A DNA stretch of 64,000 nucleotides. It comes from Gammaproteobacteria bacterium (GTDB lineage: Bacteria; Pseudomonadota; Gammaproteobacteria; G965277405). A program made the position numbers and the translations under genes. The notes beneath the pieces are model-generated. The model was not told the origin of the DNA, searched no databases, and worked only from the letters and a program-made list of their open reading frames with translations. Shown in pieces: positions 11,552 through 58,943 of this stretch (its first letter is position 1; every line of letters starts with the position of its first letter). The stretch covers positions 1,792,001 through 1,856,000 of the forward strand of contig OZ255726.1 in the NCBI GenBank assembly GCA_965277405.1, read 5' to 3'.

Positions 11552-11841
11552 GGAAGCTCTGATTAATGCCATGACTGGCGAGACGGAGAGAAAACACTGA
11601 TGAAACTTAAGCGCAGTGTGCAGATAATACTGGTGGTCTTGTGGGTGTTGCCAAGTGCAGTAACGACGGCGCGCAGCGTTTTTTCCCGTCGTTGTGTTGA
11701 ATATACTTTGGGTTTGCGGCAATTGCTTACGCTTGCTGTGTTGCATCCCTTGGCGTATATGCTACGGCATGCGCTTAGCGGTTTGCAATCATCAGCAATT
11801 GCAGGCAAATTCGCTCCATCAGCGAGTTAATCAGAGCTTCA
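11552..11841 (+). mobile_element. MITE copy (IS5-type TIRs), 290 bp
   Basis: GGAAGCTCTGATTAA ... TTAATCAGAGCTTC; interior homologous to the other copies. Confidence 0.9.
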
Positions 11842-11958
11842 TAAAGTAACTGACGCTATCGCAGCTCGTTGCATTTAACTTGTGATTCAACTTGTGATTT
11901 AATTGGGGCGCTTGCAAATCCTTAGCACTGACCATACTATTCATTTTTTTCTCTGTTA

Positions 11959-13203
11959 TTGATATTGCCTGTGCGACTACTTATTCTCCTTACCATTATT
12001 GCCTACAGTAGCACTACTGCAGCGCAACGCATCAACAGTATCGCCATCATTATCAATGACCACGCAATTTTGCAAACCACATACGCTGCACAACTGCAAC
12101 GCAACACAACTCTTTGGCAACGGCTCAACCCTGACAAGCAAGCTGATGCATTGCTGCTCAAAGAACAAACTATACGTAATATTGTTGAAACTCAAATTCA
12201 ACTCGAAGAAGCCAAGCGGATTGGCATTCGTGTTCCAGATAGCGCCATCAACGAACAACTCAATGCAATTGCCCTACGCGAAAACCTGACTCCAGCAGAG
12301 CTGCAACAACACATTATTAAAGAGTTCGGCTCCATTTTAAATTATCGCAAAGACCTGCAAAATAGTATTGTGATACAGGAGCTGCAACGGATCCACATTC
12401 GCCAACGCATCACTATTTCAGATGCCGAAATTCGCAGTTTTTTAGCAACTACTGCTGGGCGATCTGTCGCTAATTTACAATATTCGTTTAGCTACGTGCG
12501 CATACCAAAAGCTGCCAATGATAAACAGAATATATATCAACAAATCAGTGATATCCTGCATGAAGATGCAACAGTAGCGCAACGGCAAGCAACGCTGGGC
12601 AGCCTTGATGTATTCAGCAAGTATTTTGAAAAACGCCCACTTGCCGACATCCCAACTGTTATCCAAGACATTGTTCCGCTGCAATCACTCAATACAATAT
12701 CGCCACCAATCAAGAATGACCGCGGTTGGCATATTATTCAAGTACAGGAAATCGGCGGGATTACTCCTAAATTTGAAGAACAAATACATACACGCCATAT
12801 TTTACTAATCCCAAATATCGTGCGTGATGATGCGCAAATTCGACTCCAACTTGAGGAGATTCGCAACAGTATTCAACAAGGTGGAGACTTTGCTGAAAGT
12901 GTGTATTTAAACAGCGATGATAGCCAGTCAAGGCATAATGGTGGTGATTTAGGCTGGAAGCCGTACAACGCAAAGTTTGCATCAATTACATCAACTTTAC
13001 CAATTGGCGTTATCAGTGAGCCATTTGCAACCAACATTGGCTGGCATATTGCAGAAGTACTCGGCAGAAAAAAAATAGACATTAGTGTCGATCAAGAATT
13101 TCAGAGCATTCGTGAATTATTATTCAAGCAAAAACTTGCCGACGAGTTGCCCAGGTGGATAAACGAGCTCAAAGGCCGCGCATATATTGACATCCGTGTA
13201 TAA
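11959..13203 (+). CDS. surA: periplasmic chaperone / PPIase SurA
   Basis: SurA N-domain, parvulin HTRHILL...SDDSQS..GGDLGW..GWHI; upstream of rsmA. Confidence 0.88.
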   Translation: MILPVRLLILLTIIAYSSTTAAQRINSIAIIINDHAILQTTYAAQLQRNTTLWQRLNPDKQADALLLKEQTIRNIVETQIQLEEAKRIGIRVPDSAINEQLNAIALRENLTPAELQQHIIKEFGSILNYRKDLQNSIVIQELQRIHIRQRITISDAEIRSFLATTAGRSVANLQYSFSYVRIPKAANDKQNIYQQISDILHEDATVAQRQATLGSLDVFSKYFEKRPLADIPTVIQDIVPLQSLNTISPPIKNDRGWHIIQVQEIGGITPKFEEQIHTRHILLIPNIVRDDAQIRLQLEEIRNSIQQGGDFAESVYLNSDDSQSRHNGGDLGWKPYNAKFASITSTLPIGVISEPFATNIGWHIAEVLGRKKIDISVDQEFQSIRELLFKQKLADELPRWINELKGRAYIDIRV

Positions 13204-13233
13204 CAATAGCGACTCATCAAAGCTTCCCTCTAA

Positions 13234-13524
13234 GGAACCTCTGATTAAGTCCATGATGGGCGAGACGGAGAAAAAACGCTGATGAAACTTAAGCGCAGTG
13301 CGCAGATAATACTGGTGGTCTTGTGGGTGTTGCCAAGTGCTGCAACGACGGCGCGCAGCGTTTTTTCCCAGCCTTCTGTTGAATATATAACGGTTTGCGG
13401 CAGCGGTACTTGCTGTGTTGCATCCCTTGGCGTATAGCTAGGTCATGCGCTCAGCGATTTGCGCCTTGCAATCATCAGCAATTGCTAGCAAACTCGCCCC
13501 ATCAGCGAGTTAATCAGAGCTTCC
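13234..13524 (+). mobile_element. MITE copy, 291 bp, CTAA target-site duplication
   Basis: CTAA-GGAACCTCTGATTAAG ... TTAATCAGAGCTTCC-CTAA. Confidence 0.93.
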
Positions 13525-13536
13525 CTAAGCTGGCGT

Positions 13537-14289
13537 ATGCGACCACACAAAGCATTAGGGCAACACTTTTTAATTGATACGAATGTTATAGACGATTTGG
13601 TAGCCCATATCCACCCACAACCTGAAGAACAGATATTAGAGATAGGCGCAGGTACTGGGGCGCTTACTCAAGCATTATTGCGCCAAAAAGCACATATTGT
13701 TGCAATAGAGTTTGACCAGCGCCTGGTGCAGTTACTTATCCATAAATATGCTGGTTCTCGCTGCTCAATTGTAGCTGCAAACGCCCAGACATTTGACTAT
13801 GCGCAACATCAAATCAGCCACATTGTTGGAAATTTACCGTATAATATTGCCAGCCAAATTATTTTACAAATGCTCCCAACACCACACTGGCAGCGGGCAA
13901 CATTCCTCGTTCAATATGAAATGGCAACCAGACTTTGTGCTGAGCCAAACAACAAAAATTTTGGCAGATTTACCCTGATGTGTAGATTTTGGTGCTCTGC
14001 AAAACGCATTTTTGATGTAGCTGCCGAATCATTTAACCCCGCACCAAAAGTCAATTCTTCAGTTGTAGAATTGACCGCGCAACGTGTATATGATCCAGAT
14101 TTGTATCAGCAATTTGCCTTATTGGTGAAAACTGGATTTAGTAGCCGCCGTAAGATAGTAGCTAATACTTTACGGATAATTGCATCTGTAGATCAGTTGA
14201 AATCGGTCGACATTGACCCAAGCCTCCGCGCTGAAAACATTCCATTTGAGGGTTGGTATCAACTCGCAAAACTGTTGCATAGCGCCTAA
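13537..14289 (+). CDS. rsmA: 16S rRNA adenine dimethyltransferase
   Basis: KALGQHFL, EIGAGTG, VGNLPYNI, PAPKVNS, LRAE. Confidence 0.95.
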   Translation: MRPHKALGQHFLIDTNVIDDLVAHIHPQPEEQILEIGAGTGALTQALLRQKAHIVAIEFDQRLVQLLIHKYAGSRCSIVAANAQTFDYAQHQISHIVGNLPYNIASQIILQMLPTPHWQRATFLVQYEMATRLCAEPNNKNFGRFTLMCRFWCSAKRIFDVAAESFNPAPKVNSSVVELTAQRVYDPDLYQQFALLVKTGFSSRRKIVANTLRIIASVDQLKSVDIDPSLRAENIPFEGWYQLAKLLHSA

Positions 14290-14374
14290 AACATTTTGCA
14301 TAATGCTCTGCCATACTGGCTGTTTTTAGTATAATTTATCAGCTAGTACGTACCATATATATCTGCTATCATTT

Positions 14375-15229
14375 ATGAATTTAAGCAACCAACGCCACTT
14401 CATCATCGGTGATATCCAAGGCTGTTATGACGCGATGTGCACCGCGCTTGAGGCAGTAGGCTTTTGTAAGCAAACAGACTGCCTTTGGTGCATTGGTGAT
14501 GTCGTCAACCGTGGTGGTCAATCATTACAAGTGCTTGAATACCTCTATCATTTACCCAATCGACGCTTGGTACTTGGCAACCACGATATCCACTTGCTTA
14601 GATTGTGGAAAACAGGAATAACCCCACCACATAAGGATCGTGAATTAACAGCAATCCTTGCTAGCCCAAACCGTAAAGTATTATTGAAATGGTTGTTGCA
14701 ACAACCGCTGATTCACAGCGAAGTCATCGCTGCTAAAACCCATACGATGGTGCATGCAGGTTGGCCACCAATCTGGTCACTGGAGCAAGCCCAACAGTAC
14801 GCAGCGCAACTCCAAACCCATTTGCAGCAATTATCAGCACAAGGTTGGGTCAATATTTGGGGAAATTCACCAGCGCGATTCGCCGATGCCGACAGCAAAA
14901 AAAAACAAATGCGCTACATCCTCAATGCTTTAACCAGAATTCGTTATGTACAAGCAAATGGTACATTACAGCTCAGCAGCAGACGCTACACGCTGCAATT
15001 TAGCGCGTTTCGATCATGGTTTCACTTTCCACTGCGCACCAATTGCGATTACGTGTATTTTGGACATTGGGCAGCGTTGCAACGCGCGATAGGTATTAAT
15101 AAAGAAGATGTGATTTATCATGGAGCCACCAAGTTTACTGGGACGGATAGCGGCTATGTATGGGGAGGCAAGTTAACGATCATCAATATGCAAACCCAGG
15201 AAGTATTCAACATAGCTGCAAAAAAATAA
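14375..15229 (+). CDS. apaH: symmetrical bis(5'-nucleosyl)-tetraphosphatase
   Basis: GDIQGC, GDVVNRG, LGNHD, VHAG, FGHWAAL, DSGYVWGGKLT. Confidence 0.93.
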   Translation: MNLSNQRHFIIGDIQGCYDAMCTALEAVGFCKQTDCLWCIGDVVNRGGQSLQVLEYLYHLPNRRLVLGNHDIHLLRLWKTGITPPHKDRELTAILASPNRKVLLKWLLQQPLIHSEVIAAKTHTMVHAGWPPIWSLEQAQQYAAQLQTHLQQLSAQGWVNIWGNSPARFADADSKKKQMRYILNALTRIRYVQANGTLQLSSRRYTLQFSAFRSWFHFPLRTNCDYVYFGHWAALQRAIGINKEDVIYHGATKFTGTDSGYVWGGKLTIINMQTQEVFNIAAKK

Positions 15230-15320
15230 CCCACAGTGAAGCTCTGATTAACATGTTACTGTAGCCGCGTAGATATCAATGTTGGGTGCTTGCGGCTGCA
15301 ATACAGCGGATGGTCATAGC

Positions 15321-18300
15321 TTAACTGGCTTGTTGCAATGGCAAACTAACAAATGTTGACAGCAACTGTTGCTGTGCTATTCCATGAGGACGGACAAGAA
15401 AAAAATGTGGAGAATATAGTTTAAACCGCTTCAATATATCACCAACAATTCCACACCCAGTTGCATGGTGATAGGCATGCAGTGAATCGAGTAAATATTG
15501 CTGATGTTCACCCACAGGCACTGGCTCACCAACCACATCTTGCACGTTTAGGCGTTGTTGTAAGTCCTGATTGACATCCCAAACATACGCAAAACCACCA
15601 CTCATCCCCGCGCCAAAGTTATCGCCAACACCTCCCATAACAATAACACTGCCGCCAGTCATATATTCACAGCAGTGATCACCAGCACCAAGAATAACGG
15701 CATGTGCTCCAGAATTACGCACTGCAAACCGCTCTCCAGCAAGCCCTGTTACGTATAAAGTGCCGCCAGTTGCTCCATACAGACAGGTGTTCCCTATAAT
15801 CGGTGTTTCATGGGTTTTGTCGTTTTTCAATGCAACAACAGCCACGCTACCACCAGTCATCCCCTTGCCGACATAGTCATTGGCGCAACCCGTTAAATGC
15901 AACCGCATTCCACTGACATTCCATGCGCCAAAACTCTGTCCTGCCACGCCAGTAAAGTGCAAATATAGCGGCGCATGAGCCATGCCGTGGTTGCCATGGA
16001 GTTTGGCAATATCACCTGCAAGCATTGCCCCAATCGAACGATGCGCATTGTGTATGGTGTATGAGAACGTACCTCCCAAACAATTCGCAACGGCATGTTG
16101 GGTATCTGCAGCTATTCGCTTTGCCAATAGCGCTTGATCTTTTGGTTCATTAAACGGTAATGTGTGGGGTTGATCGCAAAACTGCGGTGTTGATTTTGGG
16201 CAATAATCCTCAATTAAAAGTCGACCTAAATCAATATTGCGCTGGCTGTTGGTGTGTCCTGGAATTTGCTCTAGCAGTTCAACCTTACCGATAATTTCCT
16301 GCAAATTTGTATAGCCAAGTGCTGCCAGCCATTCCCGCGTTTCTTGCGCGATTGATTGAAATAAAAATACCACTGCGGCTACGGTACCTTTGAAGTAATC
16401 CTCGCGCAAACGCTCCTGCTGGGTGGCGATGCCCGTTGCGCAATTATTTAAATGACAAATGCGCAAGTATTTGCAACCCATTGCAATCATTGGTGCTGTC
16501 CCAAACCCAAAGCTTTCAGCACCAAGAATTGCCGCTTTAACCACATCTAGTCCTGTTTTTAGACCACCGTCGGTTTGTAAGCGGACACGGTGGCGCATCC
16601 CGTTGATTCTGAGTGCTTGGTGGGTCTCGCTCAAGCCGAGTTCCCACGGTGTTCCTGCGTGATGAATTGATGTGAGCGGACTAGCGCCAGTGCCACCATC
16701 GTAGCCTGAAATAGTAATTAAATCCGCATACGATTTTGCCACGCCACAGGCGACTGTGCCGACACCTGGCGCCGCCACAAGTTTTACCGAAACCAGCGCG
16801 CTTGGATTGACCTGTTTTAAATCAAATATAAGTTGCGCTAAATCCTCAATAGAATAAATATCATGATGCGGAGGGGGGGAAATCAATGTTATCCCCGGCA
16901 CGCTGTAGCGAAGTTTTGCTATCAGTGAATTTACTTTAGGGCCAGGGAGCTGCCCGCCTTCACCAGGCTTTGCACCTTGTGCTATTTTAATTTGAATTAC
17001 TTCTGCATTGACAAGATACGCGGCGGTAACGCCAAAACGCCCCGATGCAACTTGCTTGATTTTTGAGCGTCGCGGGCTGTTATGCCGCTGTGGGTCTTCT
17101 CCGCCTTCTCCAGAATTTGACCTGCCTCCAATAATATTCATGGCTTGTGCAAGCATTTGATGTGCTTCTGGTGATAATGCACCAAGTGACATTGCTGCTG
17201 AATCAAAGCGCCACAGAATATCTGCAATAGGCTCTACTGTGGCAATATCGATGGCTGCTGTATTGCTACGTAATTTGAGTAAATCACGCAGGAATGCTGG
17301 ATTGCGGGTGTTGACTGCGTTTGCATACTCTTGGTATAACGCTGCATCTTGCGACGCCGTAGCTTTGCGCAGCAACTCAACCACATCAGGGTTATACGCA
17401 TGGTATTCACCACCATGGATGTATTTGAGTTTGCCCCCTTGTTCTAATGGTCGGTGTTGCAAATATGCTAATGCCGCAATACTGCGAGCGTTGCGGTCTA
17501 GTTGTAACCAATGCGAACCTTGAATCCGACTCGCGCTACCTCTAAAACAATCGCTTACTACTTCTTGGTCTAACCCAATAATTTCAAATAACTGCGCACA
17601 GCGATAAGAAGCAACGCATGAAATCCCCATTTTCGACATTATTTTCAGCAGTCCCTTATTAATAGCTTTAATAAAGTTTTGCTCACCATTTGCTTCAGTT
17701 TTCTGTGTTGTGGAAATCAACCCTAAGCGCATCGAAGTAGATTGTCGCACCATTGCATACGCTAAATACGGATATATCAAACTTGCGCCATAGCCGATCA
17801 GCACTGCGCATTGATGCGGGTCACGAGCATAGCCAGTTTCTACCACAATATTGGCGTCGGCGCGCACATGTTCATCTACCAAGTGATGGTTGATCGCGCC
17901 AACTGCAAGGAGCGGATGAATCAACGCCTCAGTTTGTTTGACTTTGCGGTCACTGATAATCAGCACGACTGCCTTGTTGTGGCGAACCCTATACGCTGCT
18001 TCGTCGCGTAAATTATGCACGGCATCGCGTAGCTTCATTTTTTGTGGGTTATACGCCAAACTAAGTTTGGCAACTTTCAAATACTGTTGCCGCTTAATTG
18101 CACGGATTTGTTGTGGATTGATTATCGGAGAATCAAAAGAAATAAAATCTACAGCGTCATGAATGTCAAATACTTGCCGCATGCGCCCAAGCGTAGTATC
18201 GAGCGACATTACTTTTGTTTCGCGCAAAGAATCGATGGCAGGATTAGTGATTTGTGCAAACAATTGCCGAAAATAATCACTCAACAATTGGTTTTTTTCA

Positions 18301-19796: not shown

Positions 19797-20112
19797 GTGG
19801 ATACGGACAGATTATATGAACCAATACACTAGCAATAAAAGGAAATAACGTACTCAAAGTACAGAGCATATCTAACCCCCGCACGCTGGACGCAATCTAA
19901 CATACAGTTTAACCGTGTCTTTGCAACAATAGCGCAGCTATACAGCTATTGGCGGATGTATTGGTCTTAATGGCGTTGGTTACTGCGGATATTAACTTGA
20001 ATATCGGCGACAGTAACCACCAGTTAGTGGTACGGGTTAGCCAACGCCAATATTGGAGTGTTGCCGATAATATAATAATATCAACGCCGTTGGCACAATG
20101 GTATTGAGCAGG

Positions 20113-23026: not shown

Positions 23027-23033
23027 TTCTTCC

Positions 23034-25936: not shown

Positions 25937-28345
25937 TTGTCAGATATTTTCCATCAAAGTAGTCCCGTAATGTATTGGCAATACCTTGGTTTTGCAGTTC
26001 AGCCATTTGGACTCACGCCAGATCCTAATCGCTTTTTTGTTGGCTCTGGTCATGCGGAAGCTTTGGCGCATCTCGATTTTGTGTTCCACCATCAAGGTGG
26101 ATTTATTGTCCTCACAGGCGAGGTTGGCAGCGGTAAAACCCAAGTACTCAAAACTTTTTTCAACCGTGCTCCAGCTGAGGCGCATATCGCATTCCTCATC
26201 AATGCCAATGCCTGTCCTGATGAGTTACTGCAGAATATTTGTGCAGAGTTTAAAATACCATTTTCGCATACTGATTCCACAGATAAACTCTTAGGACTGT
26301 TGCGTATCAATATGTTAGACAACTTTCGTCACGGATATACCAATATTATCGTTGTAGACGAAGCGCAACACCTCTCATTTGCAGCACTGGAATTCTTGCG
26401 GTTACTCACCAATATTGAGACCGATACGCAAAAGCTATTGCAAATCATCCTTGTTGGACAAGAGGAGCTTGCCACCACTCTAGCGGGCAACGAGCTGCGA
26501 CAATTAAACCAAAGGATAGTCGCCCGCTTCCATCTACAACGTCTTAGTTATCAGGAAACCAGTGCGTACATTGACACTCGTATTAGGCTATCTGGAGGCA
26601 TTGCAGAAATCATTCCACAAAAACTCCATAGGTACATATACAAACATAGCCACGGCATCCCGCGCTTAATTAATTTAATCTGTGACCGCGCGCTTATGGG
26701 AAGTTTCGCGCTGGGACAACCAAGTGTTAGCAAGCGAATTGTCAGTCAAGCTGTGCATGAACTTACGGAAAATTTGACCTCACCATCGCGCTACATACCA
26801 GCAACAATCAAGCCAGCAACAATCAAGCCAGCAACAATCAAGCCAGCAACAATCAAGCCAGCAGCAATCAAGCGCCCAGAGCAAGCTGCAGTTATTCCTC
26901 CAGCCCAGCCCTTACAGCTAGTTGCTCCAGAGCTTCCAGTAAACACGACTAGTACTCATATGCGTGCGGCAATAGCAGATGATATTTGCGAAAACCATGT
27001 TTCTCCTCATGATATTGAGCAGTATCACAACGTTGAGAATGATGCGTGGCCTGCATACAGGCGCAGGCAGAATCGCGTTGAGCAATTTGACTATTTTGAC
27101 TACGCACTGCCGCGTATTGATAATGAGCCAATGCTATCTCCCCCACCAAAGGATGCAACGGCGCATAATACACAGTTGAATTCATCAGAAAAAAAACGCA
27201 TGCACCACAGGATGTCACATGCCGTAACCGCGGGGTATATACTGGTGCTCGTAGCTGCGCTTGCTACTGCATCATGGGTTGGATGGCAACATCGAAATGT
27301 GCTCTATCAACAACTCATTGATGGTAGCCTGCGTCTTGCCGATTTTGTGCAACTGGAAGCGGAAAAAACCACAGAGGTCGATACTACCGCCGCTACAGTG
27401 ATAACCGAGAAAACACAACAGGTATTGACAAAGCCACAGCCACAGCACAACAACATAGCGGTCAAGAGCAGCAGCGGCGCAGCTTGGTCACAGACCATGC
27501 CAAGTGTGGTTGACACAGTAATTCAACTACAAAAAATCCCACAACACCCGCTGCTAGCAACGCAGCGTTCTAAAAAAACAACCACGAATGTCTCAGCCAC
27601 ACAGCGTATATTGCCAGCACCCAACATTGCTGCTGACGCTGTTCAACCAGTTGCATATTCTCAATTTCTGACAGAACCTGCAAATATCATCCGTCACGAT
27701 TTTGATACAGCCATCGGGGAGTTGCTCACTCTCACTAACTTTGCGCTGACGCGACGGGTGTCTTTAGCGCAGATTATCCCAGAAATGTTGTGGCTGTGGG
27801 GATACGACAAACAGCAATTGCCGCAACGCATCAATTGTCATAGTATTGATGCTTTTGGTCTGAGTTGTATCCAGCTGACGACATCACTGCAGATGATTCA
27901 AAAAATAAACCTACCAATAATATTAATTATTTATAACCAAGCCAAACAGCCAAATCATTTTTTACTCATCGGTAAAAATGACACATCTTGGATTTTAAAA
28001 CGTGGCAATACATATTATGCAGTCAGTGATGCATATTTGCGTAACAGTTGGAATAATGAAGGGTATTTTATTATTAAAGCTCCTGTAGACTCTAAGTTAA
28101 CATTAGCACCAAATCAAACAGGCAGTTCTATTGCATGGTTGATAAGTGCGCTCACAAATATTGATACGCAATACGCACTCAATACCTTCACAACCACATA
28201 TAGCATTAAAGTAGTAGCCAGCGTGAAGCGTTTTCAACGCCAGCACGGAATAGCGACAACTGGGATAGCAGGAATAGAAACAATTGCACGAATTAATCAT
28301 CTGCTATTTAAATCAACCCCAGAATTAGTTATATTTAGGTCTTAA
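25937..28345 (+). CDS. ExeA/GspA-like AAA ATPase with TM and C-terminal peptidoglycan-binding domain
   Basis: TGEVGSGKT, VDEAQHL, GIPRLINLICDRAL; VKRFQRQHGI..TGIAG. Confidence 0.88.
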   Translation: MSDIFHQSSPVMYWQYLGFAVQPFGLTPDPNRFFVGSGHAEALAHLDFVFHHQGGFIVLTGEVGSGKTQVLKTFFNRAPAEAHIAFLINANACPDELLQNICAEFKIPFSHTDSTDKLLGLLRINMLDNFRHGYTNIIVVDEAQHLSFAALEFLRLLTNIETDTQKLLQIILVGQEELATTLAGNELRQLNQRIVARFHLQRLSYQETSAYIDTRIRLSGGIAEIIPQKLHRYIYKHSHGIPRLINLICDRALMGSFALGQPSVSKRIVSQAVHELTENLTSPSRYIPATIKPATIKPATIKPATIKPAAIKRPEQAAVIPPAQPLQLVAPELPVNTTSTHMRAAIADDICENHVSPHDIEQYHNVENDAWPAYRRRQNRVEQFDYFDYALPRIDNEPMLSPPPKDATAHNTQLNSSEKKRMHHRMSHAVTAGYILVLVAALATASWVGWQHRNVLYQQLIDGSLRLADFVQLEAEKTTEVDTTAATVITEKTQQVLTKPQPQHNNIAVKSSSGAAWSQTMPSVVDTVIQLQKIPQHPLLATQRSKKTTTNVSATQRILPAPNIAADAVQPVAYSQFLTEPANIIRHDFDTAIGELLTLTNFALTRRVSLAQIIPEMLWLWGYDKQQLPQRINCHSIDAFGLSCIQLTTSLQMIQKINLPIILIIYNQAKQPNHFLLIGKNDTSWILKRGNTYYAVSDAYLRNSWNNEGYFIIKAPVDSKLTLAPNQTGSSIAWLISALTNIDTQYALNTFTTTYSIKVVASVKRFQRQHGIATTGIAGIETIARINHLLFKSTPELVIFRS
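26798..26872 (+). repeat. 15-bp in-frame tandem repeat x5 (PATIK)
   Basis: CCAGCAACAATCAAG x4 plus CCAGCAGCAATCAAG. Confidence 0.95.
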
Positions 28346-28359
28346 TTAGAGTTTCCTAA

Positions 28360-28598
28360 GGAAGCTCTGATGAATCCCATGATGGGCGAGACGGAGAAAA
28401 AACGCTGATGATAACTAGACGCAGTGCGCAGATAATACTGGTGGTACTGGTGGTACTGGTACTGGTGGTATTGTGGGTGTTGCCAAGTGCTGCAACGACG
28501 TTAGCGCAGCGTTTTTTCCCGTCCTGCTGTTGCATATACTTTGGGTTTGCGGCAATTGCAGGCAAACTCGCTCCATCAGCGACTTAATCAGAGGTTCC
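28360..28598 (+). mobile_element. MITE copy, 239 bp, CTAA TSD, internally deleted with ACTGGTGGT expansion
   Basis: CTAA-GGAAGCTCTGATGAA ... TTAATCAGAGGTTCC-CTAA. Confidence 0.93.
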
Positions 28599-29466: not shown

Positions 29467-29613
29467 AGAAGCTCTGTTAAAGTCCATGACGGACGAGACG
29501 GAGCAACGATGATGGACCCACTAGCAAGTGCGTAGCTGCCACTGGAGGGTATTATCTAGTGCTGCAACGCTGTTAGTCGCAGCGTTTTCCGTCCTCACTT
29601 AAGCAGAGGTGTC
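29467..29613 (+). mobile_element. degenerate short MITE copy
   Basis: AGAAGCTCTGTTAAAGTCCATGACGGACGAGACGGAGC ... AGTGCTGCAACG ... CTTAAGCAGAGGTGTC. Confidence 0.75.
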
Positions 29614-34910: not shown

Positions 34911-34957
34911 GGAGCCGCTGCTTAACTCGCTCCATCAGCGAGTTAAGCAGCGGCTCC
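34911..34957. repeat. perfect 21-bp-stem hairpin built from MITE end sequence
   Basis: GGAGCCGCTGCTTAACTCGCT-CCATC-AGCGAGTTAAGCAGCGGCTCC. Confidence 0.9.
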
Positions 34958-35598: not shown

Positions 35599-35664
35599 CA
35601 AGCACAACTTTATTTAATTTTTATTATTGGAAGCGCTGATTAAGTCATTGATGATGTGGATTGA

Positions 35665-40114: not shown

Positions 40115-40300
40115 TATTACTAGCAACACAGGTTCGCCAAGCGTTATTCAACGCAGCAGCGCCAACAACAATATAACGCGTGATACGGTCAATGTACGCC
40201 GAAATATCCAGTTCACCACTCCTCAACGTGCATTAATGCAAGCTCCTGCGACGAACAATACCGCCGCTGGTATTGCACCCAAAACATTTATTAGCTCTAA

Positions 40301-41493
40301 GGAAGCTCTGATTAAGTCCCATACAACAGCAATATCAGCTACAAAGATATACAATGGTGAATCTATTTGAATAAGCGGATAATCTTATGCAACAAACAAC
40401 TTTTGCCAGTGCTGCATACGACCACAAGAAAGTAACAACAAAACGTGAAAAATTCTTGCAGTTAATGGACAAATTAGCTCCATGGCAACAGTTGTTAGAG
40501 TTAATAGAACCGCATTATCCCAAGAAAGGGAATGGCCGCCCACCGATTAATATGCAGACCATGTTACGCATTTATTTTTTACAGCAATGGTACAACTTAT
40601 CAGACCCAGGGGTAGAAGAAGCACTATATGACATGGAAAGCATGCGGCGTTTTGCCCATATAGAGCTGATAGACGATGCCATCCCTGCTGAAACTACCAT
40701 CTTGAACTTGCCCGCAGGATCATAGAAAAACATCAACTCAGCGTCAAGATACTTGCTGTGGTGAATGAGTATTGTATGGAAAATAATATAACAATCTCAC
40801 CAGGGACAATGGTTGCTGCCACGACCATCAATGCGCCATCATCTACGAAGAATAAAGAGAAAAAACGGGATCCTGAAATGCATCAAACCCGCAAAGGCAA
40901 TCAGTGGTATTTTGGCATGAAGATTCATATAGGAACTGACGCTAATAGCAATATGATGCATAGCGCGGCAATGCCTACCACCACAGCCGCGAATGAAGCT
41001 GACATCAATGAACTCCCCAAATTGCTGCGTGAAACAGATAAGGTTATCTTTGCCGATGCAGGATATACGAGCGACAGTTATAAACGCGGCTCGCGTCACC
41101 TTGGGATAGATTGGCGCGTGAATGATAAACGTAAACCAAAGCAGCAAATGAGCGGCTCGCAGCGCAAACGCAATAGACAGAACTCTAAGGTGCGCGCCCG
41201 GATTGAGCACTGTTTTCGGGTAATCAAATGTCAGTTTGGTTATAAGAAAGCTCGCTACAAAGGACTAGAAAAGAATCGAGTACAAGTATTTTCTTTGCTG
41301 GCATTGACGAACTTATACATGCTGCGAGGACGACTAACAGGATAGAACCGCCCAAAATTCAAGAAAAACAGTAAAAAACAGTAAAAAACAGTAAAACAGC
41401 AACACGAAGATCAGCGAAATGATCAAATATTGACCATTGAAAATTATTGCTATTATTTTTTTGGAGTATATGCGAGGCTTAATCAGAGCTTCC
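40301..41493 (+). mobile_element. IS5-family insertion sequence, 1193 bp
   Basis: 16-bp perfect TIR GGAAGCTCTGATTAAG; flanks CTAA / TTAA (YTAR); IS5-group transposase inside. Confidence 0.95.
40387..41345 (+). pseudogene. IS5 transposase, frameshifted near 40710, first catalytic Asp replaced (VDAT to VAAT)
   Basis: MLRIYFLQQWYNLSDP, RDPEMHQTRKGNQWYFGMK, ADAGY, RARIEHCF split over two frames. Confidence 0.92.
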
Positions 41494-41743
41494 TTAAGCC
41501 GAAGTGCGCAGATAATACTGTTGGTCTTGTGGGTGTTGCCAAGTGCTGCAACGACGCTGCGCAGCGTTTTTGCTCCGTCGTTGTGTTGAATATACTTTGG
41601 GTTTGCGGCAGCGGTACTTGCTGTGTTGCATCCCTTGGCGTATAGCTAGGTCATGCGCCAGCGGTTTGCGTGCGGTTTGCGCCTTGCAATCATCAGCAAT
41701 TGCAGGCAAACTCGCTCCATCAGCGAGTTAATCAGAGGTTTCC
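41494..41743 (+). mobile_element. left-truncated MITE copy abutting the IS5 right end
   Basis: Begins at the MITE-internal TTAA, continues homologous to other copies, ends TTAATCAGAGGTTTCC. Confidence 0.88.
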
Positions 41744-44543: not shown

Positions 44544-44646
44544 ACGATATCAGCCATTTAAATCCACCAATAATGGTGTGGGCGAGTTTTGTTGATAGAA
44601 AATTTAAGCAACCTTGTAAGCGACAGCGACTTAATCAGCGCTTCCA

Positions 44647-48382: not shown

Positions 48383-48947
48383 TTAACGCCTTAAACGGTC
48401 GTACACTTGGTGGTCGCCTACATCAATTAACGCGTAATGATCTTTTGTAACTAATTTTAGTACAATGCGGCAATCTAAAGATGCACGGATAGAATAATAA
48501 TCTGCGGGTTTATCAAGGAAGCTCTGATTAAGTCGCTGACGGAGCGAGTTTGCCTGCAATTGCTGATGATTGCAAGGCGCAAACCGCTAAGCGCATGCCG
48601 TAGCATATACGCCAAGGGATGTAACACAGCAAGTACCGCTTGTAGGCAAACCATCATATATTCAATAGAAGGCCGGGAAAAAACGCTGCGCTAACGTCGT
48701 TGCAGCACTTGATAATACCACCAGTATTATCTGCGCACTGCGTCTAGTTATCATCAGCGTTTTTCTCCGTCTCGCCCATCATGGACTTAATCAGAGCTTC
48801 CCTAACAATCAGTTGTTTAAAGCGCAAGGCGGGATAGTCAGGTGTTTCAATAAATCGATGTAAGCTATCAGCAATTTTTTTTTGTTGTTGTTGGGACAGT
48901 TTTTTTAATCGTTTTAAAAAGCCGCTTGATGGCGACAACTTAATCAC
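48383..48947 (-). pseudogene. RelE/ParE-superfamily toxin interrupted by a MITE
   Basis: Removing the MITE plus one 4-nt flank restores ~91 aa: MIKLSPSSGFLKRLKKL...PALRFKQLI..KPADYYSIRASLDCRIVLKL..HYALIDVGDHQVYDRLRR. Confidence 0.8.
48517..48801 (-). mobile_element. MITE copy, 285 bp, reverse orientation
   Basis: GGAAGCTCTGATTAAGTC ... GACTTAATCAGAGCTTCC; flanks TCAA / CTAA. Confidence 0.93.
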
Positions 48948-49495: not shown

Positions 49496-49596
49496 AGGGA
49501 TTAGTTTATCAGGCTTACATTAATAATTGAATAGGTGCCTGCTGTAATCTGAGTTGTTATAGTTAGCTGCGTTGTTGCATAAAATGTTGTTGTTGG

Positions 49597-49714
49597 GGAT
49601 CCTCTGCTTAAGGCAACGGCTGCGGGAAAAGACCAAATACGTAAGTCGCAGCTGCAGGTTTGGCTGTGCGCCAAGTCGTTGCTGCGCTCAATCACACCTT
49701 AATTCATCGCTTGC
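49597..49714 (-). mobile_element. highly degenerate MITE remnant
   Basis: GGATCCTCTGCTTAAG ... GTCGTTGCTGCGCT ... CTTAATTCATCGCTTGC. Confidence 0.45.
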
Positions 49715-49726
49715 AATGCTACTGAG

Positions 49727-53643: not shown

Positions 53644-54196
53644 CTGATGTTACTAGCGATTGCATAGCTTGATCTGCTGCTGCAGCAAGTGTTTCTTTGT
53701 TGCAATATTCGCTTAAGTCGCGGTTGAGCTGTGCTGGATTGGTGAGAATGGAAAAACAATCAATTGGGGTGCTAAACACCCCGTAAGCCCAATCAACCAC
53801 ATTGTCTTCATCACTGACTAAAAAAGCTATTACACTGTATTGATAAGATTTTTTGGTGAGATTAAGATTATTAGGGTCGTAAATTGATTCCTTTTTGCGT
53901 AATTGGTGAAAGATAATCGACTGGTTATTATTCACATTTTCTTGCCGCCAACGATTGCGAACGTCTAATGTTAGATAGTGCAGCGGCGTGTACGCATTAT
54001 TGGTAATATTGTTGGCGATATTTAAACTCATTGGTGCGTTATAGATAGATGTATATTTTGTTCCAATCGTAGTGCGCAGCAGCAATTGGTCGGCAATTAA
54101 TTTCGAGGAAACTGGAACTCCATACCATTTTAATGGAGTTGAGCAACTGGAAAGTGATATTAGTAGGGTCAGTAATAAACAAAAACGTATGTACAT
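53615..54196 (-). CDS. hypothetical lipoprotein
   Basis: LSSC lipobox after a hydrophobic signal. Confidence 0.6.
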   Translation of the reverse strand: MYIRFCLLLTLLISLSSCSTPLKWYGVPVSSKLIADQLLLRTTIGTKYTSIYNAPMSLNIANNITNNAYTPLHYLTLDVRNRWRQENVNNNQSIIFHQLRKKESIYDPNNLNLTKKSYQYSVIAFLVSDEDNVVDWAYGVFSTPIDCFSILTNPAQLNRDLSEYCNKETLAAAADQAMQSLVTSDGNAVETWR

Positions 54197-54217
54197 AATC
54201 AGAGGTTCCGAGTTTCC

Positions 54218-55504
54218 TTAGCGTTTCAGGAACTCTTTGAGGGAATAATACCCCATACCTAGTGCCAGCAATGGCGACCGCAGCCAATGTCCACCAGGGA
54301 ATGGATGGTGATGTATTTTCATCCAATCATCAATATCATTGTTTATATTGGCTATAGCATCAGCAACAACTTGTGCAGCCACGTGGGTTACGTTGATGCC
54401 ATGACCAGAAAAAGCTTGTGCATAATACACATTTGGCTGCTCTAAGTGGCGTCCAATTTGTGGAATACGGTTCATGCCTATGCCAATTTGTCCCGACCAC
54501 GCATATTCAAACCGCGTAGCGGCAAGATAAGGGAATACTCTACGCATGTGGCTTGACAGTGTCGTACGAATATCTCCAATAACTTTGCCTGAATAATTAC
54601 AAACGCCGCCAAATAACAGTCGTTTATCTGGCGTAATGCGAAAATAATCAACCATCACCGTCATGTCTGAAAAAGCAATATTCTGTGGGTTTATCTGGGC
54701 AATTTGGGCATCACTTAATGGTTGGGTAGCAGCATTGTAGGCGCAGGCAGGCATTACTTTTGCAGCAATGTTGTTGTCGAGCCCGTGTTGCCAATAGCCA
54801 TTGCAGCACCAAACGATTGCATCGCAGGTTATGCTAGCACAGGCTGTTCTAATCTGAATTTTTTTACCGTAGTCAACTGCTATAACCTGACTGTTTTCAT
54901 AGATGCTAACTCCTGCATGTTGCGCGGCAATTGCTTCACCAAGCACCAGCTTAAGCGGATGGATATGCGCGCTGCCATAGTCGACCAATCCGCCTATGTA
55001 ACGTGGTGAATCGATATATTTTGTCAATGATTGGCTATCTAGTAATGCATATTTGTGGGGGTAGCCGTCTTGTTGCAATTGGGCATATTCAAACGCTAAA
55101 TCATCCATATGCCGTTGTTTCAGTGCAAGCTGGCAATGACCAAAATGCCAATCACAGTCAATGTTGTATTGTTGCATGCGCTGGTAGACCAGCTCCACAG
55201 AGGTAGACCCTGCGTGTTCGATGTTTTCGGCAATAGCAGGCGGAAGTCGGTCGTGCAATGCCGTGGATGGAGCGCTAAACCCGCGGATAACTTGTCCACC
55301 ATTGCGCCCTGAAGCACCCCAGCCAATTGTTTGCGCTTCAAGCAGAATTGTGTTGATATTGTGTTCGCTGAGTGACAGGGCGGTATTCACTCCAGCAAAA
55401 CCACCACCAATCACCACAACCCTGGCGTTGAGTTGACCGACACATTGTTGAAAGCTGGGAAGATCACAGCTTGCTGCGTACCATGAATTAATATGTTTAG
55501 TCAT
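54218..55504 (-). CDS. FAD-dependent oxidoreductase, gamma-glutamylputrescine oxidase (PuuB) family
   Basis: IGGGFAG, GASGRNGG, HPLKL, AFSGHG, FPGG. Confidence 0.85.
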   Translation of the reverse strand: MTKHINSWYAASCDLPSFQQCVGQLNARVVVIGGGFAGVNTALSLSEHNINTILLEAQTIGWGASGRNGGQVIRGFSAPSTALHDRLPPAIAENIEHAGSTSVELVYQRMQQYNIDCDWHFGHCQLALKQRHMDDLAFEYAQLQQDGYPHKYALLDSQSLTKYIDSPRYIGGLVDYGSAHIHPLKLVLGEAIAAQHAGVSIYENSQVIAVDYGKKIQIRTACASITCDAIVWCCNGYWQHGLDNNIAAKVMPACAYNAATQPLSDAQIAQINPQNIAFSDMTVMVDYFRITPDKRLLFGGVCNYSGKVIGDIRTTLSSHMRRVFPYLAATRFEYAWSGQIGIGMNRIPQIGRHLEQPNVYYAQAFSGHGINVTHVAAQVVADAIANINNDIDDWMKIHHHPFPGGHWLRSPLLALGMGYYSLKEFLKR

Positions 55505-55566
55505 ACTTCTTATTGTTTACAATACAATGGTTACAATATTAGCACATTACGTATTAATCACAGAAA

Positions 55567-56922
55567 ATGGATATAAACCAACTGAAGAAAGTACAAGACT
55601 GGCTATATGAACGTGATATAACAGAAGTTGAGTGTGTTATTGGCGATTTTGGCGGGGTAGCGCGTGGGAAAATTGCTCCAGTCAATAAGTTTGTTCAAGA
55701 AAAAGGCATGCGCCTACCAGAAAGCGTATTATTACAAAGCATTACGGGAGCATATGTCGAAGATAAGCTATATTATTCATTGCTCGATAAAAGTGATATT
55801 GATTTCTATTGTGAGCCAGATTGTGATGCGATGTTTGAGCTACCATGGCTAGATGAACGCAGTGCGTTAGTTATTCATAATAGTTATTACCGTGATGGGC
55901 AACCAGTAAATTTATCTCCCAGAAACGTGTTGAAACAAGTGTTATCAATGTACGAGGAAAAAGGCTGGACACCAATCATTGCCCCAGAAATGGAATTTTA
56001 TTTGACAGCCAAAAATAATGATCCTGATTATCCATTAAAACCGCCTGTTGGTAGCTCAGGGAGGTATGAAAGTGGTAGACAGTCGTTTTCTATTGCCGCA
56101 ACAAATGAATTTCAACTATTATTTGAAGACATGTATGCATGGTGTGAAAAGCAGGGGTTGAATATCGACACGCTAATCCATGAAGAGGGTACTGCGCAAA
56201 TGGAAATTAATTTTTGTCATGACAGCGCATTGTTGCTCGCTGACCACGTGTTTGTGTTTAAACGCACCCTGCGCGAAGCTGCGAAAAAACATAATATTGT
56301 TGCTACGTTTATGGCAAAGCCGATCACCAATGAACCAGGAAGTTCAATGCACATTCATCAAAGTATTGTTGACGCGGCTGGAAAAAATATTTTTATTGAC
56401 GCCGCTGGAGAAAAAACGGAGTTGTTTTTTCATTACATTGGTGGCTTGCAACAGCTCATGGTGCATATGCTGCCGTTGGTTGCCCCAAACGTGAACTCAT
56501 TTCGCAGGTTTTTGCCAAACTCATCAACGCCAATTAATACCTGCTGGGGCTATGAAAATCGGAATTGTTCAATCCGTATTCCTGAGTCAACTTTACAAGC
56601 AACGCGAGCAGAAAACCGAATTGCAGGTGCCGATGCAAATAGCTATTTGGCGATCGCGGCAAGCCTGCTCGGTGGATATATTGGCATGGTCGAACGCATC
56701 GCACCAACTGCACCGACAGAAGGTCGTGATGATATTTCTAAAAATGATTTTCCGCAAACGCTCAATGCCGCGCTGGATATTATGCAACAAAGCATAATCC
56801 TACCAAAGTACATCGATAATAGTTTCCTTAAGGCATATATCGCGACCAAGCGGGTTGAGTTGGGTGAATTTGATAAAGTAATCAGTGCTTGGGAACGTGA
56901 GTTTTTATTATTGAGCGTGTAG
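55567..56922 (+). CDS. glutamine synthetase-like gamma-glutamyl-polyamine synthetase (PuuA/SpuB type)
   Basis: ARGK, APEMEFYL, HEEGTAQMEIN, FMAKP, GSSMHIHQS, ENR, ISAWEREFLLLSV. Confidence 0.88.
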   Translation: MDINQLKKVQDWLYERDITEVECVIGDFGGVARGKIAPVNKFVQEKGMRLPESVLLQSITGAYVEDKLYYSLLDKSDIDFYCEPDCDAMFELPWLDERSALVIHNSYYRDGQPVNLSPRNVLKQVLSMYEEKGWTPIIAPEMEFYLTAKNNDPDYPLKPPVGSSGRYESGRQSFSIAATNEFQLLFEDMYAWCEKQGLNIDTLIHEEGTAQMEINFCHDSALLLADHVFVFKRTLREAAKKHNIVATFMAKPITNEPGSSMHIHQSIVDAAGKNIFIDAAGEKTELFFHYIGGLQQLMVHMLPLVAPNVNSFRRFLPNSSTPINTCWGYENRNCSIRIPESTLQATRAENRIAGADANSYLAIAASLLGGYIGMVERIAPTAPTEGRDDISKNDFPQTLNAALDIMQQSIILPKYIDNSFLKAYIATKRVELGEFDKVISAWEREFLLLSV

Positions 56923-57024
56923 TCGGGTTATCTATATTCAATCAGCATTTCAATGTCGCGTGCACCTTTGATGAGCTTGGCAACAACAATTTTACTGATT
57001 ACATCAAGCGAGAGTCGTTGTTTG

Positions 57025-57077
57025 GGAACCTCTGATCAACTCGCTGATGAAGCAAGTTTGTTGCCAATTGCTGATGC
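57025..57077 (-). mobile_element. MITE right-end fragment overlapping the NfeD C-terminus
   Basis: GGAACCTCTGATCAACTCGCTGATGAAGCAAGTTTGTTGCCAATTGCTGATG matches the reverse complement of the MITE right end. Confidence 0.8.
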
Positions 57078-57554
57078 GGTGGCGGGTATTACCTTAAACA
57101 CGCCAACTTCAACCGAGCAGACCTTGACTGTTGCCCCAGAGGGAATGCGTGCAATATTTGCATTTGGGGCGAGTTCAACGCGCCAGTTGATGCCAGAATA
57201 TTGCGTCGTGCTAGCTTGTGCTGACGTTATGTCGCTATCGATAACAAACATGTGACCGACCAAGTCGCTGCTGTTATCTTTGGCGATTGGACCCTTGCCT
57301 TGCAGGCGTTTGAATGGTATCCATAGCAACGCGGTGATGATACCTGTCCAAATGCCTGTACTGGCAATGCCGAAAACCCAAGACTCAGCAAGCACACCAG
57401 TCGTCATCAATATGCCTGTGGTCAGTGCAGCAAGCCCAGTAAATATAAACACACCTGTGCTAAAACCGCTGATGATTTCGATGATGAGCATCATGAAGCC
57501 GAAAAACAACCAAAACTGGGTTGGATGGCTTTGAATATACTCAATAATAATTAT
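57036..57554 (-). CDS. NfeD-like (YbbJ-type) protein; start uncertain
   Basis: TM segments, SSDLVG, YSGINWRV, OB-fold-like C-terminus; downstream of SPFH gene. Confidence 0.75.
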   Translation of the reverse strand: MIIIEYIQSHPTQFWLFFGFMMLIIEIISGFSTGVFIFTGLAALTTGILMTTGVLAESWVFGIASTGIWTGIITALLWIPFKRLQGKGPIAKDNSSDLVGHMFVIDSDITSAQASTTQYSGINWRVELAPNANIARIPSGATVKVCSVEVGVFKVIPATASAIGNKLASSAS

Positions 57555-57562
57555 CGTATTCC

Positions 57563-58510
57563 TTAAGAATTTTTGCTGTTTAGCGTGTTTATAATCGTCA
57601 TCGCTTCAGCAACCACATTGGCAGCATTAGATTTGCCTTCAGGCAACAGCACAACAGTTGAGTCTTTCGCAATTGCGCGTTTCGCCTCAATTGCTTTTTC
57701 GGCAAGATTGAGTTGAATCGCTTTTTGCCCTACAGGCGTATCTGCGACTTGTCCAACGGTATCTAGCGCTTTTGCTTGTGCATCGGCGACTGCAATAATT
57801 GCTTGCGCTTCACCTTCTGCGCGTAAGATTTGCTCGGTTTTATCTGCTTCTGCGGAGAGCACTTGGGCCTGCTTGGCTCCTTCTGCAACATTGATTGCCG
57901 ATTGGCGGGTTCCTTCGGATTCTAAAATAGTAGCGCGTTTTTCTCGCTCAGCTTTCATTTGGCGTTCCATCGCGTCAAGGATAGTACGTGGTGGTTCGAT
58001 GTCTTTAATTTCATAGCGCAGCACTTGGACACCCCATGGTTCTGATGCTGAGTTTATCGAAGAGACGATGTTGCTATTGAGACTCTCGCGCTCTTCAAAA
58101 GTTTTGTCTAAATCAATTTTACCAATTTCACTGCGCATCGTGGTTTGTGCGAGTTGGGTAATGGCGAAGGAATAGTTCTCCACACCATATGATGCTTTAT
58201 AGGCGTCGAGAATTTTAAGATACAACACTCCATCAACAACCAATGAGATATTATCCTTGGTGATGGCAGCTTGGCTGGGCACATCGTAGGCCTGTTCTTT
58301 TAAGGATTGGTTGTACGATACTTTGTCAATGAAAGGGACAAGCATGTTAAGACCAGCGGTCATAGTGGTGTTGTATTTACCAAACCGTTCAACTACAAGC
58401 GCGCGGTTTTGTGGCACAAACTTGATTGAAAATTTGACCATGATAATAACCAAGATGGTCAAACCCACCCAAAAGTTAAAAATAAGACCTAATAGTTGCT
58501 CAATGTTCAT
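57563..58510 (-). CDS. SPFH/band 7 (stomatin-like, QmcA-type) protein
   Basis: VERFGKY, ITKDN, AQTTMRSEIG, WGVQVLRYEIKDI, QMKAEREKRA. Confidence 0.93.
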   Translation of the reverse strand: MNIEQLLGLIFNFWVGLTILVIIMVKFSIKFVPQNRALVVERFGKYNTTMTAGLNMLVPFIDKVSYNQSLKEQAYDVPSQAAITKDNISLVVDGVLYLKILDAYKASYGVENYSFAITQLAQTTMRSEIGKIDLDKTFEERESLNSNIVSSINSASEPWGVQVLRYEIKDIEPPRTILDAMERQMKAEREKRATILESEGTRQSAINVAEGAKQAQVLSAEADKTEQILRAEGEAQAIIAVADAQAKALDTVGQVADTPVGQKAIQLNLAEKAIEAKRAIAKDSTVVLLPEGKSNAANVVAEAMTIINTLNSKNS

Positions 58511-58720
58511 TGATAGTACTCGCTGTCCTTTAAGATAAAAATTTATTATAGCGGCTCACTATGATAAATGTGAAGTGCCGTGCGTTAATCGAATCTTTGC
58601 AAATGTATCAGTTAAGACTGGCTGCAATCTTATTGTTTTTTGGAAGATATCCATGCGGCTACTATCTCAAGAAACTCACACTCATAGCACCAAACAACAC
58701 ACTCATGCTTGATTATCTAA

Positions 58721-58943
58721 GGAAGCTCTGATTAAGTCCATGACGGGCGAGACGGAGCAAAAACGCTGCTGATAAATTAAGCGCAGTGCGCAGATAATAC
58801 TGCTGGGTATTATTAAGTGCTGCAACGACGTTAGTGCAGCGGTTTTGCTCAGTTCTTCTGTTGAATATACTTTGGGTTTGCGCCGTGCAATCATCAGCAA
58901 TTGCAGGCAAACTCGCTCACTCGGCGGCTTAATCAGAGGTTCC
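58721..58943 (+). mobile_element. MITE copy, 223 bp, CTAA TSD
   Basis: CTAA-GGAAGCTCTGATTAAG ... CTTAATCAGAGGTTCC-CTAA. Confidence 0.93.

Follow-up and report, generated by a model that had tools for sequence, protein, structure and literature searches.

Repeat copies in the analysed window

The source genome, that of a gammaproteobacterium, consists of a single contig of 2,174,577 bp with a G + C content of 44.8%, and the window analysed here, that is, the whole stretch of 64,000 nucleotides (nt), corresponds to its bases 1,792,001–1,856,000. The window contains many copies of a short repeat together with one insertion sequence (IS) of the IS5 group. [quoted passage not shown] An initial annotation, made from the sequence alone, had placed main MITE copies at 11552, 13234, 28360, 48517 (reverse) and 58721, a truncated copy at 41494, and the IS at 40301–41493; direct reading and nhmmer recovered every one of them in place. 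A pattern search with the 16-base end motif GGAAGCTCTGATTAAG, allowing up to 3 mismatches, gave 24 matches in the window, compared with a mean of 0.32 and a maximum of 2 in shuffled sequences (0 of 100 shuffles reached 24). The individual copies, fragments and solo ends are listed below in window coordinates.

11552–11841 (+): full-length MITE, 290 bp (nhmmer E = 3e-94, profile positions 1–289)
13210–13227 (+): decayed right-end fragment to the left of the 13234 copy (seen by eye, under the thresholds of nhmmer and the pattern search)
13234–13524 (+): full-length MITE, 291 bp, exact CTAA duplication (nhmmer E = 3e-100, flanks)
15237–15252 (+): solo terminal repeat with 2 mismatches, followed by sequence that has no relation to the MITE (pattern search)
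28341–28356 (-): solo end, back-to-back with the 28360 copy at a gap of 3 bp (pattern search, direct reading)
28360–28598 (+): internally deleted MITE, 239 bp, exact CTAA duplication (nhmmer profile positions 1–170 and 244–289, flanks)
29467–29612 (+): short decayed derivative, 146 bp (nhmmer E = 2e-16, profile positions 2–141)
34911–34957 (strand not applicable): 47-bp miniature form, two diverged ends head to head (seen by eye, missed by nhmmer and the pattern search)
35629–35644 (+): solo end, variant GGAAGCGCTGATTAAG (pattern search)
40301–41493 (+): IS5-group IS, 1,193 bp, frameshifted non-autonomous copy, flanks CTAA/TTAA
41494–41742 (+): MITE cut at profile position 56 by the IS, which it adjoins (nhmmer E = 2e-77, profile positions 56–289)
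44630–44645 (-): solo end, same variant as at 35629 (pattern search, direct reading)
48517–48801 (-): full-length MITE, 285 bp, member of a young subfamily of 40 copies (nhmmer, clustering)
49597–49612 (+): weak solo-end candidate, 3 mismatches (pattern search only)
54194–54209 (-): solo end, 2 mismatches, absent from the initial annotation (pattern search, direct reading)
57025–57076 (-): right-end fragment of about 50 nt (nhmmer match at 57028, E = 1e-6, profile positions 241–289; found by the pattern search only at 3 mismatches)
58721–58943 (+): internally deleted MITE, 223 bp, exact CTAA duplication (nhmmer E = 3e-62, flanks)

The three exact CTAA duplications that had been reported, at 13234, 28360 and 58721, were thus verified. 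No exact duplication borders the copies at 11552–11841 (flanks CAAA/TAAA), which lies between a subtilase gene (-) and surA (+), and at 48517–48801 (flanks TTAG/TTGA), which has 2 substitutions and 1 gap relative to that at genome position 162247. The copy at 13234–13524 is situated between the stop codon of surA and the start codon of rsmA, 12 nt upstream of the latter, in the orientation of both genes, which were identified by the Pfam domains SurA_N/Rotamase and RrnaAD, respectively. Likewise, the copy at 28360–28598 has a GspA-like AAA/peptidoglycan-binding gene on one side and a GspB-like gene on the other, and is oriented as both. These two copies sit inside gene pairs that usually form operons (surA-rsmA, here without pdxA between them, and gspA-like-gspB-like), 12–30 nt from the reading frames. 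The derivative at 29467–29612 has retained the first hairpin of the element and both degraded ends, and is separated by 3 nt from the start codon of the ankyrin-repeat gene that follows. The breakpoint of the truncated copy at 41494–41742 is an internal TTAA/CTAG site, and the missing left 55 nt are not found on the other side of the IS.

The decayed copies and solo ends previously listed at ten positions fared less uniformly: the pattern search supported those at 15237, 28341, 29467, 35629, 44630, 49597 and 57025, those at 13208 and 34911 were recognizable by eye only, and the one at ~1687 proved to be a loose resemblance backed by neither search. Further ends, at 11509 (-), 54194 (-), 59037 (+) and 63014 (-), have to be added to that list. 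The end variant GGAAGCGCTGATTAAG occurs 5 times in the genome. The two solo ends carrying it in the window (35629 and 44630) were considered as borders of a 9-kb element, given that they have this rare variant in common, but their flanks show no duplication and such an element is unlikely.

Genome-wide copy number and target duplications

An nhmmer profile built from the six main window copies yielded 388 matches in the whole genome, which were reduced to 297 non-redundant matches. These comprise 172 full-length copies (split 89 to 83 between the two strands) and 125 partial ones, with a total length of 63.6 kb or 2.9% of the 2.17-Mb genome. The positions of both ends were determined for 154 of these 172 copies, and the remaining 18 were left out of all later counts. 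After realignment the 154 copies had a median length of 287 bp (range 223–329 bp), with the ends GGAAGCTCTGATTAAG...CTTAATCAGAGCTTCC.

The 4-mers flanking the element were identical in 64 of the 154 copies and differed by at most one base in 103, whereas an offset control gave 0 of 154. Among the exact duplications TTAG (31) and CTAA (20) prevailed, and the wider target site reads C-YTAR-G. Among the YTAR motifs in intergenic DNA, TTAA is the commonest (980 occurrences vs. 539 for TTAG and 565 for CTAA, the latter two counted on the sense strand of co-directional spacers); nevertheless, it is rare as a target and was found in only 8 of 154 left flanks. Read in the frame of the element itself, TTAG (73 elements) is about twice as frequent as CTAA (38; p = 0.001). 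The insertion complex must therefore be asymmetric, which fits the observation that the two ends of the element differ beyond base 16. In its size, terminal inverted repeats, target duplication, absence of conserved coding sequence, copy number and possession of a partner IS, the family agrees with a MITE. The initial annotation had proposed a genome-wide count of copies and duplications and a search for an intact transposase bounded by the same terminal repeats; the former resulted in the 297 matches, 64 exact duplications among 154 copies and TTAG/CTAA consensus given above, and the latter was successful as well.

The partner insertion sequence

Blastn of the window IS against the whole genome returned 47 pieces of at least 150 nt, 38 of them full-length, with a consensus of 1,229 bp. 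Of the 36 copies that were trimmed and aligned, 12 contain an intact transposase open reading frame (ORF) of 315–319 amino acids (aa), an example being the 315-aa one at genome position 1249655–1250602. The intact protein matches the NCBIfam model NF033581 'IS5 family transposase' with 326.9 bits (cut-off 140), and also the Pfam families DDE_Tnp_1 (PF01609, E = 4e-29) and DUF772. Elements of the IS5 group have one transposase ORF and measure about 1.2 kb, and both features were found here together with the DDE transposase and a 4-bp YTAR duplication.

In the window copy the transposase is frameshifted and divided into ORFs of 112 and 195 aa, so that any transposase has to be encoded by intact copies at other places in the genome. 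A 2-nt insertion, located in the window at 40700–40725, for example, disrupts the gene in about 21 of the 36 aligned copies, the window copy included, and gives rise to ORFs of about 112 and 189–195 aa; a slippery motif was not visible at the insertion site. As so many copies share this insertion, the defective IS lineage must itself have multiplied, presumably moved in trans like the MITE.

Head-to-tail arrays were observed at genome positions 1248041–1254752 and 1419670–1423571, where a MITE is followed by two or three IS copies with one YTAR 4-mer between each. The IS copies inside the arrays differ from each other (94–97% identity to the window IS), and for this reason the arrays apparently arose by successive insertions and not by tandem duplication.

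Shared ends and probable joint movement of MITE and IS

In a blastn comparison of the consensus sequences, positions 1–19 of the MITE correspond to positions 1–19 of the IS (18/19 identical) and positions 267–287 to positions 1209–1229 (20/21 identical). The match between the terminal inverted repeats of the repeats and the IS at 40301–41493, previously noted in the window, thus extends over 19 and 21 nt. The interiors showed no similarity in the same comparison beyond mirror matches between the inverted ends, in agreement with the earlier observation that the MITE interior is unrelated to that of the IS.

Evidence that the two elements have moved together comes from a composite of 1,516 bp, in which a MITE (284 bp) is joined through the 4-mer CTAA to an IS of 1,228 bp whose transposase is intact. 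It occurs in three genomic copies, at 53721–55236, 1248041–1249556 and 1528045–1529560, and the element is identical in all three. Their flanks are unrelated (23–29% identity), and each copy is bordered by its own duplication (CTAA/CTAA, TTAG/TTAG and TTAG/TTAG, respectively). The simplest reading is that the transposase paired the outer MITE end with the far end of the IS and moved the composite as one unit, and that this happened recently. On this reading the left end of a MITE and the right end of an IS acted as a pair, and the transposase would accept the MITE end. For mobilization in trans, these three identical composites with separate duplications constitute indirect but strong evidence. 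Moreover, several pairs of MITEs are only 1–3 bases apart in sequence and have different flanks, and at genome position 390906–391491 a young full-length copy is nested within an old one and bordered by a TTAG duplication. The nested copy represents an insertion into a known empty site, because the uninterrupted copies of the family serve as that site.

In the proposed mechanism the transposase would recognize the terminal 16–19 bases GGAAGCTCTGATTAAGTCC common to MITE and IS, and would insert the element at a YTAR 4-mer, mostly TTAG or CTAA with a C before and a G after it, whereby these four bases would be duplicated. The two ends are not equivalent: on its left the MITE reproduces 19 nt of the IS left end, and on its right 21 nt of the IS right end. 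We infer that the intact IS copies supply the enzyme; the reaction chemistry assumed here is taken from what is known of IS5-family DDE transposases.

Subfamilies, age and activity

The median pairwise divergence of the MITE copies is 11.7%, compared with 3.3% for the IS copies. Clustering at a distance of 8% resolved two young subfamilies of 40 and 37 copies with an internal divergence of 5–6%, in which exact duplications are preserved in 42 of 77 copies, as opposed to 22 of the 77 other, older and scattered copies. The only window copy from a young subfamily is the one at 48517; that at 11552–11841 belongs to an old lineage and remained a singleton at this clustering distance. Two young subfamilies on top of 77 older copies, in addition to the decayed solo ends, bear out the initial suggestion that the family spread in several waves, and its history would consist of at least two recent bursts over an older decayed layer, with copies surviving almost only between genes.

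The same data could be read in another way, namely that the repeats are fossils of a past IS5-type spread and by now inert spacer DNA. Such a reading would account for the divergence of the MITE copies relative to the IS copies, for the fact that merely 8 of the 154 copies have a nearest neighbor less than 1% divergent, and for the state of the main window copies, five of six of which are of old lineage, deleted or truncated. It would also agree with the lack of a polymorphic empty site in the contigs of three sequencing runs of one study. However, the three identical composites at unrelated sites, each with a duplication of its own, the MITE pairs that are 1–3 bases apart with different flanks, and the intact transposase ORF in 12 of 36 aligned IS copies all argue against an inert family, and we regard the fossil explanation as improbable. 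The mobilization of the MITE by the resident IS remains by far the better explanation, and the system is probably still active.

Several points nevertheless weigh against this conclusion. First, the MITE interior of about 250 bp has no detectable IS origin, so that a derivation by deletion from this particular IS is apparent from the sequence for the ends only; the earlier term 'IS5-derived' is accordingly justified for the two ends and not for the interior. Second, the composites could in principle have become identical through gene conversion, although their separate exact duplications at unrelated sites argue otherwise. Third, an empty site in another strain was not found in the three runs of the one study that cover the region. 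The contigs of these runs end at repeat ends, and the listed joints link different repeat copies without cleanly removing one element; for example, contigs of the runs X1 and X2 stop or start within both ends of 48517–48801. Fourth, exact duplications are present in only 64 of 154 copies and the others rely on motif similarity, a share that fits the age of the family as reflected in its median divergence. Finally, the gene positions used below were derived from a simple ORF caller and not from an annotation and are therefore approximate.

In the same two runs, a departure from the window sequence was observed close to the IS. Contigs of X1 and X2 match up to window position 40174, after which 10 differing letters lead into a repeat end in place of 40175–40300; this could reflect a structural difference beside the IS or a paralogous locus.

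Genomic location and orientation

MITE insertions largely spare genes. Only 9 of the 154 copies lie 50 codons or more inside an open frame, compared with 58% of 2,994 random YTAR sites. Within two codons of a stop lie 22 of the 154 copies, corresponding to 15% of the sites that are not deep in genes vs. 8% at random. With regard to their neighbors, 74 copies are found between genes on the same strand, 39 between convergent and 30 between divergent genes, and for 11 the nearest gene is far away; convergent spacers make up only 13% of neighboring gene pairs. The MITEs between same-strand genes show a preferred orientation, with 50 pointing in the direction of the genes and 24 against it (p = 0.003), and this 2:1 ratio was stable at stricter thresholds and in young and old copies alike.

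Two possible causes of this bias were rejected. The orientation relative to replication was balanced (82 vs. 72, p = 0.47), the skew curve itself being very asymmetric, and the composition of the target strand cannot account for the bias either, as TTAG (539) and CTAA (565) are similarly frequent on the sense strand of co-directional spacers. The cumulative GC skew of the genome has its minimum at ~463 kb and its maximum at ~2,163 kb, which divides the chromosome into very unequal arms of ~1.7 Mb and 0.47 Mb; this could be due to IS-mediated rearrangement or to a weak skew signal.

Back-to-back junctions

Among 639 end-like sites in the genome, 31 back-to-back junctions (27 of them distinct) were identified. 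In 28 of the 31 the two ends are exactly 4 bp apart, and all of these 28 spacers are YTAR motifs. The share of ends involved in such junctions is much higher for the IS (32 of 87) than for the MITE (26 of 448; Fisher p = 2e-13), and the left end of the IS is the most affected (20 of 43). A rough estimate, based on 639 flanking sites among the ~11,000 YTAR sites left once those deep in genes are set aside, leads to an expectation of ~6%, with which the MITE figure agrees, whereas the IS figure is several-fold higher. Possible reasons for the excess of IS ends are a targeting of element ends, selection for sites that are safe for a 1.2-kb element, or the younger age of the IS copies, which would have met more ends.

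Secondary structure and coding potential

The MITE consensus folds with -136.8 kcal/mol, compared with -85.1 +/- 5.1 kcal/mol for shuffled sequences (z about -10). The predicted structure comprises a terminal stem of ~33 bp and a ~100-nt hairpin at positions 31–133, placed between an A6 and a T6 tract, which, judging from this fold, could stop transcription in both directions. These features raise the question of whether the repeats are a structured regulatory module, such as a terminator, promoter or RNA, whose function for the host drives both spread and retention. Besides the strong fold and the terminator-like appearance of the hairpin, the orientation bias, which is independent of threshold and age, and the copies within the gene pairs surA-rsmA and gspA-gspB, which normally form operons, would be in line with such a role. 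However, a strong fold is expected of any element with long inverted repeats, and these are the reason for it here. RNAalifold on 152 distinct rows of the alignment predicted almost no structure, and compensatory changes (29 pairs and 93 cells) were not in excess of shifted controls (39–46 pairs and 63–88 cells), so a structure conserved by covariation was rejected. Promoter and terminator scans of three copies returned nothing above shuffles, with the limitation that the long hairpin exceeds the loop limit of the scanner. In Rfam the whole window had 0 matches at threshold, and the best hit to one copy was Trp_leader with 18.8 bits vs. a required 41 (E = 0.22). As the duplications, nested copies and composites furthermore demonstrate spread by transposition, we consider a module kept by the host to be a highly improbable explanation of the family.

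An even less credible alternative, to which we assign almost no weight, is that the MITE carries a small gene. A recurrent ORF of 30–39 codons begins at the same ATG, preceded by GGAG, in 79 of the 154 copies, and the 30–33-aa product would have a start resembling a signal peptide (M-I-T-R-R-S-A-Q-I-I-L-V-V-L). Its pattern of change is neutral, however: synonymous, non-synonymous and stop changes number 93:219:20, compared with expected proportions of 0.25:0.70:0.05, and the divergence at the three codon positions (0.057/0.110/0.078) shows no third-position excess. The ORF also diverges as fast as the remaining interior (0.082 in both), the ATG context is missing in 29 of 154 copies, and in 20 of 154, including a recurring early-stop variant, the frame stops within 10 codons. 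A small secreted peptide encoded by the MITE was therefore rejected despite the presence of the ORF in about half of the copies, and the repeats are best regarded as gene-less elements mobilized by the IS.

Distribution and known relatives

No match to the MITE was detected in 40 other genomes, all of them related to the source genome only at the class level, or in a plasmid collection searched by distant blastn, and a conserved 20-mer of the interior had 0 exact matches in metagenome contigs. As far as these searches reach, the family is lineage-specific, as had been proposed. Nothing contradicts the additional proposal that it is undescribed: besides the absence of an Rfam family at threshold, the terminal 16-mer was not found in the literature by a narrow open-access text search, which leaves room for the family having been published, and an equally narrow search combining 'miniature inverted-repeat transposable' with IS5, symbiont and gammaproteobacteri retrieved no paper.

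In contrast to the interior, the 19-base terminus GGAAKCTCTGATTAAGTCC had at least 120 exact matches in metagenome contigs. Within 80 of these stretches (loci L090–L169), 58 inverted end pairs were identified, which delimit 53 small elements of 54–374 bp (commonly 90, 110 or 131 bp) and 5 elements of IS size (1,163–1,186 bp); 44 of the 58 pairs have identical 4-bp flanks. The interiors of these elements are unrelated to the MITE family, as the nhmmer profile of the 154 copies had 0 matches in the 80 loci, and TTAA and CTAG duplications are as common among them as TTAG and CTAA, unlike in the family described here. What they have in common with it are the ends and a generally hairpin-rich architecture. 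This suggests that the terminus marks a widespread IS5 clade that has spawned many different MITEs, with the present family being one lineage-specific member.

The partner IS resembles IS5 of Escherichia coli and the IS5 group in its ~315-aa DDE transposase, its length of ~1.2 kb, its 16-bp repeats starting with GGAAG and its 4-bp YTAR duplication; it differs from the group by a strong preference for TTAG/CTAA over TTAA and CTAG. YTAR is given as the IS5 duplication motif in a published account (PMC10359306). Named relatives are distant, the ISPst7 / IS1384-type plasmid proteins being only ~51% identical to the transposase. Among species-representative genomes, the closest transposase was that of a metagenome-assembled genome of Candidatus Endonucleobacter bathymodioli with 75% identity, the rest reaching at most 58%; the IS in that genome has 1,158 bp, similar ends and a CTAG duplication. 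Judged by these identities, the IS would be a new, unnamed one.

Two other classes of small bacterial repeats can be distinguished from the family. REP/BIME sequences, which are mobilized by RAYT proteins, are palindromic units of 20–40 bp without target duplication, and Correia elements of Neisseria have a TA target duplication and 26-bp repeats; the elements in question here are ~287 bp long and have IS5-type ends and 4-bp YTAR duplications. A closer counterpart is MITEPsy1 of Pseudomonas syringae pv. phaseolicola, whose ends, according to its published description, match those of the IS5-family element ISPsy2 (PMC3189936). That description gives it as 100 nt long and present in 6 copies, with a 4-nt duplication at CTAG or YTAA; its movement is presumed there to depend on the IS transposase, and it often lies beside other mobile elements (PMC3189936). 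Its terminal repeat GGAAGGTCTGAAAAAGCC resembles that of the present family, which differs from MITEPsy1 as far as described there in its length (~287 nt), its 172 full and 125 partial copies and its unrelated, highly structured interior. In scale, the family is comparable to MITECca01 of the Cardinium endosymbiont of Oedothorax gibbosus, for which the published account reports ~240 bp, 169 copies and 3.5% of the chromosome, nearly equal to the 2.9% found here, along with ISCca4 as its counterpart (PMC9769881). MITECca01 is depicted in the same account as lineage-specific, located mostly in intergenic regions or within other mobile DNA, and kept up by a small number of parental IS copies that are still intact (PMC9769881); it differs, on that description, by its IS982-family parent and its Bacteroidota endosymbiont host. 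Other bacterial MITEs reach copy numbers of a similar order according to a 2024 review (PMC10969869).

Other features of the window

An inverted repeat of 209 nt with 96% complementarity (59021–59229 / 62837–63045) brackets a 3.6-kb segment of the window. Its arms each begin with a decayed IS5-like end TGAACCTTTGATTAAG, and the ends at 59037 (+) and 63014 (-) lie inside them. The segment contains a weak N-terminal transposase fragment (DUF772, E = 8e-4) as well as two gene pairs, one ParD/ParE and one MazE-like/PIN, and looks like two toxin-antitoxin modules caught between the remnants of a second IS5-like element. A tandem direct duplication was furthermore observed at window positions 4292–4905 and 5577–6188, with a period of ~1.28 kb and 300-nt blocks of 88% identity (other blocks 81–97%); it is probably a duplicated gene and unrelated to the MITE.

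Implications

The family is an unnamed new instance of a well-known class of bacterial repeats that is unusually abundant in this genome. For annotation this means masking ~300 stretches, which make up 2.9% of the genome, together with ~47 IS pieces as mobile DNA, so that they are not mistaken for small genes or RNAs. The family also provides a clean and abundant case of a MITE of the IS5 group, and the small genome that harbors it has no companion from its order among those compared. The composites are a natural record of a MITE end and an IS end working together, and other features deserving attention are the preference for TTAG over CTAA, the accumulation of IS ends next to other elements and the 2:1 bias in orientation between co-directional genes.

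A tentative joint hypothesis, which we consider rather unlikely to hold in both its parts, is that the transposase may target its own ends and that the MITE may act as an orientation-dependent transcription module. By the first part, a new IS would land one 4-mer away from a resident element, which would generate head-to-tail arrays and composites that move as units. By the second, the A6/T6 hairpin and a possible internal promoter would have the effect that only insertions directed toward the downstream gene are well tolerated in operons. If both were true, this small isolated genome would be a natural system in which an IS5-type element shapes operons and assembles composite transposons. Beyond this genome, the occurrence of a single 19-base terminus on many unrelated small elements suggests that this IS5 clade spawns MITEs repeatedly.

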